Program-made: the position numbers and the translations under genes | Notes under the pieces: model-generated | Databases searched by the model: none | Seen by the model: only the letters and a program-made list of their open reading frames with translations | Told to the model about the DNA's origin: nothing | Assembly: GCA_001897295.1 (NCBI GenBank) | Contig: MKSN01000001.1 | Span: forward strand, 672,141-736,140 | DNA length: 64,000 nt | Reading direction: 5' to 3' | Origin: Candidatus Saccharibacteria bacterium 49-20 | Lineage (GTDB): Bacteria > Patescibacteriota > Saccharimonadia > Saccharimonadales > Saccharimonadaceae | Shown: piece by piece, positions 40,638-60,471 of the stretch | Layout: every line of letters begins with the position of its first letter | Numbering within the stretch: the stretch's first letter is position 1

Positions 40638-40801
40638 AGTTTCTCCTTGGTTCTTTATTCTATTTTACCAAAGTATTCCCTAGGGCACCCTCCCCTGCTA
40701 TACTTTCCCTACTATGACCTGCGGGTCCTCTACGCGTCGACGTTCGGACGAGCCGAACCACTAACGCTCACCTACATAACAATTACAAGGAGAGCAACAA
40801 C

Positions 40802-56117: not shown

Positions 56118-57770
56118 TTATGCCACTCGCTCTTTATCTTCGCGTTCAAGGTGTACGTAAAGACCCGCCACAACGCGGCGTTCATGCAGCGCCATCTCTT
56201 CTGCCGTCAGCGCAGCGGTAACTCGCGCAACACCCGCGTGACCGGTTGCGAGGAAGCGCTGCATCGACTTATCAATCTCAACCCAACCGGTTGGCTTGCC
56301 CCGCTCCATCACCATTTGGCGCACCTTACTAAAGGCTGCGCGAGATTCTTTTGGCACATCCATACCCTGGCCTGGTGTTTTTCCTGAAATGACGCTTTCA
56401 ATAATGACCGCCGCAGTTGCTTCGTCAAAACGCTCCGCAAGAAGCCCCTGCACCTCAGTGCGAATAGCTTCAAACGACTCGTTGTCGTACGCTTGGGGCT
56501 CAAGAGCAGCGCTCACCGCGTCAGATTTACGAAGACGCGCTAATTCGGCGTTTGGACCCTTTGTAAGGAGCTTGCTCAGACCGCTAAATACCGCCGCATC
56601 CACGCGAAGCGCCTGATCGGGAGTTCGCACGGTTTTACGAAGGTCTTTGAGTGGGATTGGTTCACGATTTTTAGGCGTCCCGTTTTCGATAAACACGCCA
56701 AATGAATGACGCACCCAACGAAGTTCTTCTGGGTCAAGCTTGTAGGTAGGGTCGTCCAGGTACGGGCGAAGGTAGTTTGCTGTCGCTTCTACCGCAGCCT
56801 GCTTTGCGGCCGTCATGTCACCGGTCGATTTTGGGTCGAGGAAACTTGCGAGGCCAACGCGTGCGGTGCCATCGAGGCCAATACGGTCTTGAAGAAGCTG
56901 CGCAAGATGGGTGTGCGGGGGAAGATCGGAGACTACTTCCTTGCTACGAGATGGAATTGGAGTTGGCTTTGGCGCCACCGGGCGCGCACGCTCAATTGGT
57001 GTTGGTGCGGCAACCGGAGCTTCGGTATGCACTGCAACCGCGTGACTTTCTTCTGTAGGCGCGGCATCAGAACCATTCACCCTCTTCTTAAGATTTGATT
57101 CGAACATAGAGATTGCACCACCAGTCACGCCAAAGTGTGCGGCAATTTCTTTAGTTGCAACACCCCGAAGGCGGAGTGTGATTTGCTCGATAAATCGGTC
57201 GGTATTCTTGGCTGAGCGTGGTGGGTTCGCGGCAATAATTTTCGCCGCAATCGCCGCTTCATCATCAGTCTCGTTGGCTGAAATATCCTCACGCCAGTTC
57301 TCACCAAGCTTGTTCGCAAGCCATGACTCAGCGAATGGACTGAGTGTTACCACCGGAGCAAGCTCAACGCTCACAACAGGCTCAGACTCGACCACCGCCA
57401 GCTCAGCTTCAGGTGCAACCTCGTCCGCCTCAACCGCATGAAGTGTCGGTTCGGCTACCACCGCATCAGCAGGAGCCGCTACGGCGTCGTCGTCGCCCAC
57501 ACCAATCCCCTGGAGCAATCGCGTCACTTGGCTGGCCTTTTTACCAATCTTACTCGCGAGTCGTGGATCGGTTTCGCGAAGCTTATCAAGTGCCGCTTCC
57601 GCGCTCGCAAGAAGTGTCGCAAGTTCAGCAAGATGACCTACCGCAACTGTGCGTTTTGTCTCATTAAATTGCTCAATAGTCCGCTGCTCGGTTTCGGTCA
57701 ATAACCCCATCAAATCCCCTTCGCCTCTCGTTGTTTTCATCATAATACGCTGGTCAAGCGAGGCCGACAA
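56118..57770 (-). CDS. hypothetical protein with a central sigma-70 region-4/LuxR-like HTH
   Basis: RFIEQITLRLRGVATKEIAAHFGVTGGAISMFESNLKKRV resembles a region-4 type HTH, flanked by acidic and Pro-rich linkers. The C-terminal ~270 aa are unassigned. Start uncertain. Confidence 0.55.
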   Translation of the reverse strand: MSASLDQRIMMKTTRGEGDLMGLLTETEQRTIEQFNETKRTVAVGHLAELATLLASAEAALDKLRETDPRLASKIGKKASQVTRLLQGIGVGDDDAVAAPADAVVAEPTLHAVEADEVAPEAELAVVESEPVVSVELAPVVTLSPFAESWLANKLGENWREDISANETDDEAAIAAKIIAANPPRSAKNTDRFIEQITLRLRGVATKEIAAHFGVTGGAISMFESNLKKRVNGSDAAPTEESHAVAVHTEAPVAAPTPIERARPVAPKPTPIPSRSKEVVSDLPPHTHLAQLLQDRIGLDGTARVGLASFLDPKSTGDMTAAKQAAVEATANYLRPYLDDPTYKLDPEELRWVRHSFGVFIENGTPKNREPIPLKDLRKTVRTPDQALRVDAAVFSGLSKLLTKGPNAELARLRKSDAVSAALEPQAYDNESFEAIRTEVQGLLAERFDEATAAVIIESVISGKTPGQGMDVPKESRAAFSKVRQMVMERGKPTGWVEIDKSMQRFLATGHAGVARVTAALTAEEMALHERRVVAGLYVHLEREDKERVA

Positions 57771-57803: not shown

Positions 57804-58379
57804 ATGACACATCCACACGACAACCTCAAAATTCTTGCCTTTGTTGGGCTTCCTGGCGCGGGAAAATCTACCGCCGTCGACTACTTTACCGAAAAAGGCT
57901 ACCCTAAAGTCTACTTTGGTGGCATCGTCTTTGAAGCAATGAAAGAAGAGGGTATCGAGATCACTCCTGAAAGTGAAAAAGCTTTCCGCACACGCTTCCG
58001 CGAAGAGCACGGTAAAGATGTGGTAGTAAACCGCATCGTGGATCAAATCAAACATCTTGCAGACGCAGGCCAGCATCGCGTCATCGCCGACGGCCTCTAC
58101 ACCTGGACTGAGTATAAGGTCCTCAAGAAGGCCTTTCCGGGTGAGCTTATTCTTGCGGCAGTCGTTGCACCGCGCCACCTTCGCTATCACCGCCTCGAAA
58201 ATCGTCCAGTTCGCCCATTCACCGCAAGCGAATCATACGACCGTGACATGCACGAAATCGAAAACCTTGAAAAAGGTGGTCCGATTGCAATTGCCGATCA
58301 CTACCTCGTAAACGATGGGTCGGTTGAGGCGTTCGACAAGAAACTCGACGCACTCGCTGAAGAAGTACACTTTAGTTAA
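57804..58379 (+). CDS. P-loop nucleotide/nucleoside kinase-like protein (dephospho-CoA-kinase-like fold, UPF0200-like)
   Basis: ILAFVGLPGAGKSTAVDYF Walker A. Size and layout fit small kinases. Confidence 0.65.
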   Translation: MTHPHDNLKILAFVGLPGAGKSTAVDYFTEKGYPKVYFGGIVFEAMKEEGIEITPESEKAFRTRFREEHGKDVVVNRIVDQIKHLADAGQHRVIADGLYTWTEYKVLKKAFPGELILAAVVAPRHLRYHRLENRPVRPFTASESYDRDMHEIENLEKGGPIAIADHYLVNDGSVEAFDKKLDALAEEVHFS

Positions 58380-59350
58380 GCAAGGAGCTTAAGACGCTTA
58401 CGCTCGGCCGCAGTCTTACCACCCCATACCCCATCAGGTTGGTCGGTCGCGATTGCATAATCGAGGCAGTAGAGCCGAGCAACACATTGCTCACAGACCT
58501 GCTTTGCCATACGCACAGTTGCGCGATTTGGGTTATTAAATAGTTCTGGATCCGTCTCGGTGCAATTTGCAAATTCGCCCCAGTTTAACGCGTTCGGGGT
58601 GAGGTCGTCACGGGAAATCCTTTGCGGCTGTTCTTCAATTTCGTCTACCCGTTCACTTGGGTGACGTGGCTTTAACTTCTTAAAATGATCGCCAAGCTCA
58701 TTCATCTGTGCAATCGTCTGTTCGGTTGGATAATACGAATAAAGCTGGTTATTGTACGGATTAAGCTTCACGACTGGCGTGAGTACGATGTAGCGTAATC
58801 GCCGCCTCACCCACTTTACCCCCACGCCAAGCACCGTTGCAAGCCCTTCGACCGTACTCTCATCATCACCCGCCACCGGATACGCACGCATGCGTGCATC
58901 TTCGGCTTCTAGTAACGGCAAATCATCCTCGCGACTGTAATACTCAAATAATCGGTTATTGACTGGGTTACGCTTCGTCGTGCTCTCGATATCAAAGTAG
59001 GGCAATCTCGCCGCCACCCATTTTTCATCACGATCCAAGGCGAGTGACAGGCCATTGATTGAAATATCAGATTCATCCACAACCGGGTAATCCATCAGTG
59101 CACGAAGTTCGGCTGCAAGCACATCAATAGCTTCTATCGGGTAGTAGGTTCGTAACCTCCCCTGACTATCGGGCCATTGGCGGGAAATCTCTTTGTATTT
59201 TTCAAGGCGAGGCTTTGTCCAGTCATGGGTCTTACCCAAATACTCGGCAGCCTTTCCAATCGTCATCCAGTAGTCCGGATGAAACACGTCCATAGAATTT
59301 TGCGCACCACGCTCAACGACAAAAGCGCCTTCAATCTCAGCAATACTCAC
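58376..59350 (-). CDS. WhiB-like (Wbl) Fe-S transcription factor domain fused to three N-terminal HTH-like repeats (GTG start)
   Basis: The C-terminal part reads NC-x22-C-x2-C-x5-C followed by GVWGG and a basic tail. The N-terminal 220 aa contain three ~67-aa repeats, with W44/W111/W180 and YY69/YY137/YY206 in register. Confidence 0.85.
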   Translation of the reverse strand: MSIAEIEGAFVVERGAQNSMDVFHPDYWMTIGKAAEYLGKTHDWTKPRLEKYKEISRQWPDSQGRLRTYYPIEAIDVLAAELRALMDYPVVDESDISINGLSLALDRDEKWVAARLPYFDIESTTKRNPVNNRLFEYYSREDDLPLLEAEDARMRAYPVAGDDESTVEGLATVLGVGVKWVRRRLRYIVLTPVVKLNPYNNQLYSYYPTEQTIAQMNELGDHFKKLKPRHPSERVDEIEEQPQRISRDDLTPNALNWGEFANCTETDPELFNNPNRATVRMAKQVCEQCVARLYCLDYAIATDQPDGVWGGKTAAERKRLKLLA

Positions 59351-59394
59351 AATGCCCTTATTTAGCCACCATCTGGCCCATTATGCAAGCATAA

Positions 59395-59419
59395 GAAAAA
59401 CCCAGCACACGGCTGGGTT
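59395..59419 (-). terminator. intrinsic terminator after rpoD
   Basis: The minus-strand RNA reads aacccagc-cgugu-gcuggguu-uuuc. Confidence 0.65.
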
Positions 59420-59439
59420 CTATCTTGCACTAGTGCATC

Positions 59440-60471
59440 TTAGCTCAAGTAATCGTGAAGCTTCTTTGAGTCTTTGTGTTTACGAAGCTTGGCAAGCGCC
59501 TTGGCTTCGATTTGACGGATACGCTCACGAGTCACAGCAAACTCTTGACCTACTTCTTCGAGGGTATGACTCTTGCCGTTTTCAAGACCAAAACGCATCT
59601 TGATAATTTTCTGTTCACGGTCTGAAAGTGTCGAAAGAATTTCCTGTACTTGCTCCTTAAGGAGTTGTGACGCCGCAGACTCTTCTGGAGTCGCGCTATC
59701 TTCATCCTCAATGAAGTCACGAAGCACTGAATCTTCTTCGTCACCATCACGGCCCACACCAGCATCGAGTGAAGTAATGTCCTGCTTAATCTTCATGACA
59801 TACTCAACCTTTTCTGGTTCCATTTCAAGCTCTTTTGCAAGTTCTTCAATGGTTGGTTCGCGGTTAAGTTCTTGAGTCATACGACGTTGCGTGCGGAGAA
59901 GCTTATTAATAGTTTCCACCATGTGTACTGGAATACGGATCGTACGCGCTTGGTCGGCAATGGCACGGGTAATCGCTTGGCGAATCCACCAGGTTGCGTA
60001 GGTTGAGAACTTGAATCCCTTGTCCGGGTCGAACTTTTCAACTGCGCGAAGAAGCCCCGTGTTACCTTCCTGAATAAGGTCAAGGAAGTCGAGGCCGCGG
60101 CCACTATAACGCTTCGCGATTGAAACCACGAGACGCATGTTGGCTTCAGCCATCTTGTCTTTCGCCTTCTTGTCACCGTCAACGACACGCTTTGCAAGCG
60201 CGAGTTCTTCTTCGGCGCTAAGAAGTGGGATCTTACCGATTTCACGTAGGTACAAGCGCACACTGTCGTCACTTGCATCGTCGAAGTACTGCTCTTGGCT
60301 TAGTACGTCTTCATCAGTGTCCATTTCCTCTTCTTCGAGGTCTTCGAGCGCTGGGCCGTCGAAGTCTGCAGGAAGCGTAATTTCATCAGCTACTACACCT
60401 TCAGTGGCACCTTCTTCAACAAGCGCGTCATCTTCAATAATTGGTTCTTCTTTTTTCTTACCTTTTGGCAC
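59440..60471 (-). CDS. rpoD: primary RNA polymerase sigma factor (sigma-70/RpoD)
   Basis: Acidic N-terminus, region 2 ([37 protein letters not shown]), and regions 3 and 4 ([24 protein letters not shown]). Confidence 0.94.

Follow-up and report, generated by a model that had tools for sequence, protein, structure and literature searches.

We analyzed a stretch of 64,000 nucleotides (nt) from Candidatus Saccharibacteria bacterium 49-20 (contig MKSN01000001.1, positions 672,141 to 736,140; hereafter the window) and found, directly after the primary sigma factor gene rpoD, a gene on the reverse strand (58376–59350) that encodes three tandem winged helix-turn-helix (wHTH) repeats fused to a WhiB-like (Wbl) domain. 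We consider it probable, at moderate confidence, that the product is a cluster-dependent transcription factor that would be tethered to sigma region 4 and whose fused triple winged-helix array would read DNA upstream of the promoter. The gene is complete with respect to the list of open reading frames (ORFs), its sequence and full-length homologues; it starts with a GTG codon at 59350, ends with the stop codon at 58376–58378 and encodes 324 amino acids (aa). Wbls have been described as exclusive to Actinobacteria and actinophages (PMC6282962; PMC13013590), and a 2026 study of the family dropped sequences outside 75–250 aa. The literature description of a single-domain protein of 75–130 aa from Actinobacteria or actinophages does not fit the fusion protein, which is 324 aa long, has several domains and comes from a member of the Saccharimonadaceae. 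Judged by the family hidden Markov model (HMM), the Cys pattern and the GVWGG turn it is nevertheless a Wbl, one that departs from the described proteins in size, architecture and phylum. A preliminary description, made from the letters alone, regarded Wbls as characteristic of Actinomycetota and their phages; the host here, a member of the Saccharimonadaceae, lies outside the Actinomycetota.

By sequence, the C-terminal 70 residues (residues 255–324, 58379–58588, reverse strand) are a bona fide WhiB-like domain, which is detected by Pfam PF02467, by sequence matches in the PDB and by Foldseek. PF02467 (Whib) aligned to residues 257–320 with all of its model positions (1–65/65) and scored 62.1 bits (gathering score 23.6; E = 7e-17), and the PHROG WhiB families were matched as well (E = 6.5e-17). 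The WhiB-like C-terminal domain and Cys pattern proposed in the preliminary description were thereby placed clearly above the family threshold. Residues C263, C286, C289 and C295 form the pattern C-x22-C-x2-C-x5-C and presumably bind a [4Fe-4S] cluster. In 12 of 12 family members the four Cys, W257 and F271 are invariant and the GxWGG position holds an aromatic residue. The Gly-rich turn GVW309GG is followed by the basic tail ERKRLKLLA (GVWGGKTAAERKRLKLLA), whose shortness resembles the tail of Streptomyces WhiB. When a profile of the Wbl domain was compared with the PDB, we obtained E = 1.3e-18 for WhiB of S. venezuelae and E = 3e-13 for WhiB1 of M. tuberculosis, and Foldseek with the whole model retrieved the WhiB1:SigA4 (6onu_G) and WhiA/WhiB RNA polymerase (8dy9_H) complexes at 41–42% identity. 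The best solved match is S. venezuelae WhiB (WhiB2 class; ∼42% identity), seen together with WhiA on region 4 of sigma-HrdB (PDB 8dy7, 8dy9). Both proteins have the same Cys spacing, the GxWGG turn and a short basic tail; unlike WhiB, the window domain lacks the WhiB2/WhiB subclass signature FFPEKGGST, reading LFNNPNRATV instead, and its host is no actinobacterium. WhiB1 of M. tuberculosis, solved on sigma-A region 4 (PDB 6ono, 6onu), is 41% identical over 71 residues in the Foldseek alignment, and its W3, F17 and W60 have their counterparts in W257, F271 and W309 of the window protein. In contrast to the fusion protein, WhiB1 is a single domain of 84 aa, and its sigma factor inserts His516-Pro517 where the local RpoD has Lys-His.

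The N-terminal part of the protein is of a different kind. Residues 26–228 consist of three in-register repeats of ∼67 aa, namely R1 (residues 26–88, 59087–59275), R2 (residues 89–157, 58880–59086) and R3 (residues 158–228, 58667–58879), all on the reverse strand. They are preceded by a variable, predicted disordered N-terminus (residues 1–25, 59276–59350; predicted local distance difference test (pLDDT) <50 and poor conservation in the alignment of the family), and separated from the Wbl domain by a low-complexity acidic linker (residues 229–254, 58589–58666), which is rich in indels and differs in length between homologues; the AlphaFold2 model of the fusion protein stays below pLDDT 50 for residues 230–266. 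The repeat residues given in the preliminary description (W44/W111/W180 and YY69-70/137-138/206-207) are correct, and all three units match a unit profile that includes the window's own units (R1, E = 1.3e-24; R2, E = 1.2e-28; R3, E = 3.3e-28). R2 and R3 resemble each other at z = 19 above shuffled sequences and R1 is weaker (z ∼2–3), and 15 units from five homologues share one alignment register with the signature W..T...A..LG....WV..R ... (H/Y)YP. The isoelectric points (pI) of the units differ, R1 being neutral (pI 6.8), R2 acidic (pI 4.4) and R3 basic (pI 9.1, with the stretch KWVRRRLRY).

For structure prediction we ran AlphaFold2 on the full protein with a 12-sequence alignment, which modeled residues 28–228, R1 included, at a pLDDT of ∼90. 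Since the Foldseek E-values of the whole protein were weak, a single unit, R2, was modeled and searched separately. This model reached a pLDDT of 91.5 and has the order beta-alpha-alpha-beta-beta-alpha (strands E4-6, E33-36 and E43-48; helices H7-14, H18-24 and H49-65). Against the PDB, Foldseek aligned it with the DNA-binding domain of RacA (probability 1.00, template modeling (TM) score 0.67), BldC (0.96), SoxR (0.93), Pukovnik Xis (0.91) and BmrR (0.90). Its neighbors in a viral library were MerR-like, excisionase, AlpA and PrtN proteins, the MerR-like and excisionase ones at probabilities of 0.98–1.00, and the two-unit DNA binder TraN was among the matches of the whole model. The beta-alpha-alpha-beta-beta fold is common to BldC, lambda and Pukovnik Xis, RacA and TraN (TM 0.5–0.7, probability 0.9–1.0), and TraN also carries tandem units in one chain. 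The window units are set apart from BldC, Xis and RacA by a sequence identity of only 14–18%, by an additional C-terminal helix that would act as spacer, by their own signature and by covalent arrays in nearly all listed members. No Pfam or NCBIfam model matched residues 1–250 at E ≤ 1, and no PHROG model did. In relatives, the Pfam models HTH_23, HTH_17, MerR_1 and KorB appear below threshold at the start of each unit, for example HTH_17 with 16–18 bits (cut-off 27) and MerR_1 with 18.5 (cut-off 21.6). The excisionase/MerR-like nature that the preliminary description assigned to the repeats is therefore supported by the AlphaFold2 fold and the Foldseek neighbors at the level of fold, as a winged helix of this type, while no sequence model detects the repeats in the window protein. 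At the level of sequence the repeat is an undescribed family that no Pfam or NCBIfam model covers.

Next, we compared both sides of the presumed contact between the Wbl domain and sigma region 4. The presumed partner, RpoD, is encoded immediately upstream (59440–60471, reverse strand), is 343 aa long, contains the Sigma70 domains r1.2, r2, r3 and r4 and scores 370.8 bits with TIGR02393 against a cut-off of 354. Hundreds of relatives are 90–95% identical to it; the named ones come from Candidatus Microsaccharimonas sp., Candidatus Saccharimonadaceae bacterium and Candidatus Saccharibacteria bacterium 47-87. By these RpoD relatives the host falls within the Saccharimonadaceae, and the chromosome is one of Saccharibacteria (Patescibacteria, candidate phyla radiation) and not of an actinobacterium. 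Every Wbl with a studied structure binds region 4 of sigma-A, whose His516-Pro517 enters the cluster pocket of the Wbl, lined by an aromatic patch of W3, F17, F18 and W60, and in M. tuberculosis Wbl binding is lost with any of the exchanges H516A, H516F or P517A (PMC6954389; PMC13013590). In an ungapped HMMER alignment to SigA chains, H516-P517 of M. tuberculosis align with K331-H332 of the local RpoD (codons at 59476–59481, reverse strand), and the loop reads KLR-K-H-K-D-S versus KLR-H-P-S-R-S in other primary sigma factors (SigA KLRHPSRSKKL). The RKHKDS loop (R330-D334, 59470–59484), which stands where RHPSRS is near-universal, was present in 120 of 120 Saccharimonadaceae RpoD sequences retrieved, with or without a wbl gene at the locus. 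On the Wbl side three of the four positions of the aromatic patch (AP) are retained (AP1 = W257, AP2 = F271, AP4 = W309) and AP3 is the non-aromatic N272. The loss of AP3 is common to the whole ten-member clade in which repeats precede the Wbl domain; some genuine Wbls, e.g. WhiB4 and WhiB6, also lack one position of the patch (PMC13013590). Because sister genomes that share this RpoD tail also encode WhiB2-like Wbls whose FF motif is intact, we think that the Wbl-sigma interface was probably re-tuned and not lost.

To trace the repeat, we searched 1.84 billion cluster representatives exhaustively with HMMER and the unit profile. It matched 288 protein clusters at E ≤ 1e-3, 167 of them at E ≤ 1e-10; the counts that follow refer to the best 150 of the 288. 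Nearly all of these clusters have at least two tandem units, with up to nine matched stretches. A Wbl domain is present in 9 of them: in 7 of the 9 the repeats precede it, with three, four or five units, and in the other 2 (P0298, P0344) the Wbl domain comes first. In a crude neighbor-joining tree without bootstraps, the Wbl domains of array fusions fell into three separate groups, and the ten repeat-then-Wbl domains formed a clade of their own. All other partners of the array have DNA or RNA polymerase as their target: P0257 joins the array to an N-terminus resembling an extracytoplasmic function (ECF) sigma factor (TIGR02937, E = 3.5e-9), P0262 has a similar N-terminus whose likeness was judged by eye only, and P0256 joins the array to a ResIII/RadD-like helicase. 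The contig of P0257 is 3.4 kilobases (kb) long and its gene context is uninformative. P0257 and P0260 are rich in Ala, Arg and Pro and the P0257 contig has a guanine-cytosine (GC) content of 57%; because of this composition our data suggest that the repeat family extends beyond Saccharibacteria. P0025 is a small protein of 124 aa that combines HTH_23 with Whib. That the two modules were fused repeatedly, in either order, and also occur split at the same locus constitutes Rosetta-stone evidence that array and Wbl domain work together.

The complete architecture is rare, in line with the preliminary description, which had called it unusual. A word-indexed search of 5.8 billion proteins gave four other full-length clusters at 46–52% identity, and a scan of JGI metagenomes added two loci, one of them a further full-length locus. 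Records of the identical fusion protein come from 43 data blocks and at least 23 contigs. We observed no relative among the GTDB representative genomes, which were scanned with the protein and with a five-sequence profile, and none in IMG/VR; PADLOC and NCBIfam matched neither the fusion protein nor the repeat. GenBank phages matched the Wbl domain only (28–31% identity). The closest single-domain Wbl relatives (40–53% identity) include proteins on contigs with 73% GC, presumably actinobacterial, and our data are compatible with a transfer of the Wbl domain from the actinobacterial hosts of these epibionts. A native-like base composition, as described before, is confirmed by a GC content of 0.499 for the gene and 0.512 for the window. 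The literature that we searched contains no mention of Wbls in Saccharibacteria, Patescibacteria or TM7, nor of the repeat or the architecture.

In order to evaluate the position of the gene we compared its locus between lineages. The order dnaG, rpoD, wbl-fusion, a convergent AAA_17 kinase gene and polA is shared by six lineages, of which five besides the window have full-length homologues with 45–52% identity. The neighbors are more similar between lineages than the fusion protein with its 45–52%: we observed 65–72% identity for the kinase, 71–84% for PolA, 74–85% for DnaG and 90–99% for RpoD. Other sister loci, referred to by number, differ at this site. In L008 the gap between rpoD and the kinase gene is empty. 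In L007 it holds a gene for a repeat-only protein of 391 aa, and a separate Wbl of 258 aa is encoded before polA. L009 has a DEAH helicase in the slot and a Wbl of 117 aa before polA; in L011 a DEAD helicase is followed, ahead of polA, by a Wbl-then-repeat protein and one additional gene of the sigma-70 family. Because sister genomes hold other genes or nothing at this site, the fusion gene is accessory and lies in a variable slot for transcription-related genes; it is a fast-evolving gene and not an ancient core gene. The position of the wbl gene next to rpoD, pointed out in the preliminary description, is thus conserved by synteny in six lineages although the gene is nonetheless accessory. 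The separate Wbls also differ among themselves. The one of L007 (9583–10359) has its domain at residues 158–223, carries FFPEKGGST and groups with S. venezuelae WhiB in the crude tree; a Wbl without array just upstream of polA in L004 (9432–9998) carries the same signature, and that of L009 (6001–6354), likewise without array, reads LFNPEQGGS and falls outside the group of L007 and Streptomyces WhiB.

The region between rpoD and the fusion gene contains several conserved elements, all on the reverse strand. A scan found the intrinsic terminator of rpoD at 59397–59421 (10 pairs, then a T-run), and its hairpin is kept by compensatory changes across five lineages, in agreement with the terminator noted before. 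The −10 element CATAAT (59380–59385) that had been proposed with it is not conserved in relatives; two other blocks are. Block 1 (59383–59400, TTTTTCTTATGCTTGCAT) contains a −35-like TTGCAT at 59383–59388 and has the consensus TTTT[TG]CTT[AG]TG[CG]TTGC[AT]T in five lineages, in which the would-be third codon positions are conserved as well. A related block follows rpoD in L009 though a different gene lies downstream there. Block 2 (59360–59368, TGGCTAAAT) is invariant as TGGCT[AT]AAT in five lineages, and a spacer of 14 nt with variable sequence separates the two. As TGGCTWAAT occurs once in the 64-kb window, which is the chance level, we take it to be specific to this gene and no general promoter element. 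A purine-rich tract AAGGG (59355–59359) lies 4 nt before the GTG and may serve as a Shine–Dalgarno (SD)-like sequence; four other lineages have the equivalents AGGGG, GAGG, AGGG and AGAG, and the GTG/ATG start is conserved. Because of an in-frame TAA, of invariant third positions and of block 1 standing before the unrelated gene of L009, we read the stretch upstream of the GTG as regulatory DNA and GTG 59350 as the true start.

Two candidates were rejected for this region. An upstream start at ATG 59390–59392 is contradicted by the in-frame TAA (59381–59383), by conservation at the DNA level and by block 1 in L009. A promoter composed of TTGCAT, 17 nt and CTAAAT fails the consensus scan and leaves no room for the SD-like tract. 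The window reads MLA*WARWWLNKGIV where the gene calls of four homologues begin with MLAYLLNAWLNR. The calls in L002 (8001–8045), L004 (8001–8045), L005 and L006 start 14–15 codons too early, because in these loci the conserved non-coding element is by chance free of stop codons in that frame.

In the reading that we favor, the Wbl domain would use its cluster pocket and aromatic patch to dock, within the RNA polymerase holoenzyme, on region 4 of the primary sigma factor, and its activity would depend on an intact O2/NO-sensitive cluster. The three winged-helix units would contact DNA on the upstream side of the −35 element, possibly at direct repeats and head-to-tail like Xis and BldC. Both BldC and Xis bind direct repeats cooperatively. 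One chain would in this way supply the promoter specificity that actinobacterial Wbls take from an AT-hook (WhiB7) or from WhiA. That the gene comes straight after rpoD in six lineages, with conserved upstream blocks of its own, counts for such a role; cluster binding, docking on region 4 of its own RpoD, DNA binding by the array and the direction of regulation are inferred. The concept of a Wbl that is tethered to sigma region 4 and relies on a separate DNA-reading module for specificity is known from WhiB and WhiA; in Streptomyces, however, this module (WhiA) is a separate protein, whereas the window protein would carry it in the same chain, as a triple wHTH array whose fold is unrelated. 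The AT-hook of WhiB7, the fusion of WblP to an ECF sigma factor, reported for Streptomyces, and wbl genes near sigma genes are known from the literature (PMC6282962). The window protein shares with WhiB7 and WblP that the Wbl is extended by a module for DNA binding or transcription, and its gene likewise lies near a sigma gene. It differs from them in that the added module, 200 aa comprising three winged-helix repeats, lies at the N-terminus; no such arrays have been described there.

A more far-reaching version of this proposal is that Saccharibacteria, obligate epibionts of Actinobacteria, possess a native Wbl system in which at least three lineages repeatedly welded Wbls, in either order, to an Xis-like array, giving single-chain, promoter-specific Fe-S activators tethered to sigma region 4, and in which the near-universal His-Pro was rewired to Lys-His, forming a co-evolved and possibly orthogonal interface. 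We regard this version as tentative and somewhat doubtful.

Several observations weigh against the proposed role. With K331-H332 in place of H516-P517 canonical docking cannot be assumed, and AP3 is non-aromatic. The Wbl part of the AlphaFold2 model reached a pLDDT of 50–63, and the Foldseek E-values of the small unit are weak (0.01–0.02) despite its high probabilities and TM scores. An acidic R2 and a neutral R1 are unusual for DNA-binding units, and Tandem Repeats Finder detected no candidate operator arrays or target DNA repeats in the window. The gene is also absent from sister genomes and hence non-essential. In an alternative reading the Wbl domain would still dock on sigma region 4, and the winged-helix units would be protein–protein adaptors or a scaffold that might recruit a regulator or an RNA polymerase subunit, or oligomerize. 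The charge of R1 and R2 fits such a function, the most conserved residues of the unit (W, R and YY/HYPP) could form a packing or peptide-binding surface, cognate DNA repeats were not found in the window and no HTH sequence model reached its threshold. The structures that match best, however, are without exception winged helices that bind DNA, and several were solved in complex with it; R3 has a basic putative recognition helix, KWVRRRLRY, and the fusion partners (sigma, helicase, Wbl) point to nucleic-acid targeting, so that we consider a scaffold unlikely.

Less likely still is that the primary sigma factor of the organism is not used and the Wbl domain is an autonomous redox/NO switch on a DNA-binding array, or binds an alternative sigma factor or a WhiA-like partner. 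The replacement by K331 and H332 in RpoD, the lost AP3 of the ten-member clade and the extra sigma-70-family gene beside the Wbl-then-repeat gene of L011 agree with this explanation. It has to be set against the facts that a His is still present in the loop, one position later, that AP1, AP2 and AP4 are conserved, that FF-motif WhiB2-like Wbls share the same RpoD tail in sister genomes and that the adjacency to rpoD is conserved. The variable interval between rpoD and polA, which holds helicases, an extra sigma factor, Wbl genes or nothing, and the divergence of the protein, faster than that of every neighbor (45–52% versus 65–99% identity), would also fit cargo of a mobile element or phage, or for an effector aimed at the sigma-A of an actinobacterial host, which keeps His-Pro. 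Saccharibacteria live on Actinobacteria (PMC12369343), and the single-domain relatives include the proteins from 73% GC contigs. We nevertheless judge this origin very improbable: the flanks are core housekeeping genes with no integrase or phage gene among them, the GC content is native, IMG/VR holds no relatives and PADLOC no match, GenBank phages match the Wbl domain only at 28–31% identity, and the domain scans gave no hint of secretion (signal peptides were not searched for). The least credible of the explanations is a decaying or non-functional fusion. Patchy distribution, the low-confidence model of the Wbl part and the in-frame TAA upstream of the called start, seen relative to the longer calls of homologues, could be taken for decay; the ORF, however, is intact in six lineages at 45–52% identity, the Cys, the W/F aromatics and the repeat cores are invariant, the upstream ‘coding’ extension of the homologues is conserved non-coding DNA, with no start lost, and the identical protein recurs on many contigs.

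Further features were recorded around the locus. The stop codons of the fusion gene and of the AAA_17 nucleotide-kinase-like gene (57804–58379, forward strand) overlap by 4 nt (58376–58379); the same tail-to-tail overlap is found in L002 and a longer one in L004, and in L006 the genes merely abut. Between the kinase gene and polA lies an ORF of 550 aa (56118–57770, reverse strand) without a Pfam, PHROG or PADLOC match. Its homologue was found only in L007 (33–35% identical) and is absent from L002, L008, L009 and L013, which marks it as another accessory member of this variable slot, the second besides the fusion gene; residues 190–232 give a weak Tfx-like HTH signal. The genes dnaG and rpoD overlap by 14 nt (60458–60471), and this overlap, which is kept in related loci, suggests that translation of the primase gene is coupled to that of the sigma gene. 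At 40711–40767 (forward strand) the window contains an MDR-NUDIX RNA motif (Rfam RF02918; 69.9 bits, gathering score 54.9), a motif associated with TM7.

Taken together, a Wbl in Saccharibacteria contradicts the rule that restricts Wbls to Actinobacteria and the phages of these bacteria (PMC6282962; PMC13013590). The presence of whiB has been used to assign phages to actinobacterial hosts (10.1101/2023.05.30.542503), and chromosomal wbl genes in Saccharibacteria would weaken whiB as such a phage–host marker. The locus also offers a Rosetta-stone case for the promoter specificity of Wbls, the putative DNA-reading module being fused here and split into a neighboring gene in sister genomes. The sigma region 4 loop with KH for HP, combined with Wbls that lack AP3, amounts to a natural experiment on the Wbl-sigma interface. 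With its 288 clusters, a previously unannotated repeat domain is defined that occurs in fusions with sigma, helicase and Wbl modules. Genomes of the candidate phyla radiation encode few regulators, and a factor that would sense O2 or NO through an Fe-S cluster in an epibiont of Actinobacteria may bear on how these bacteria sense their hosts.

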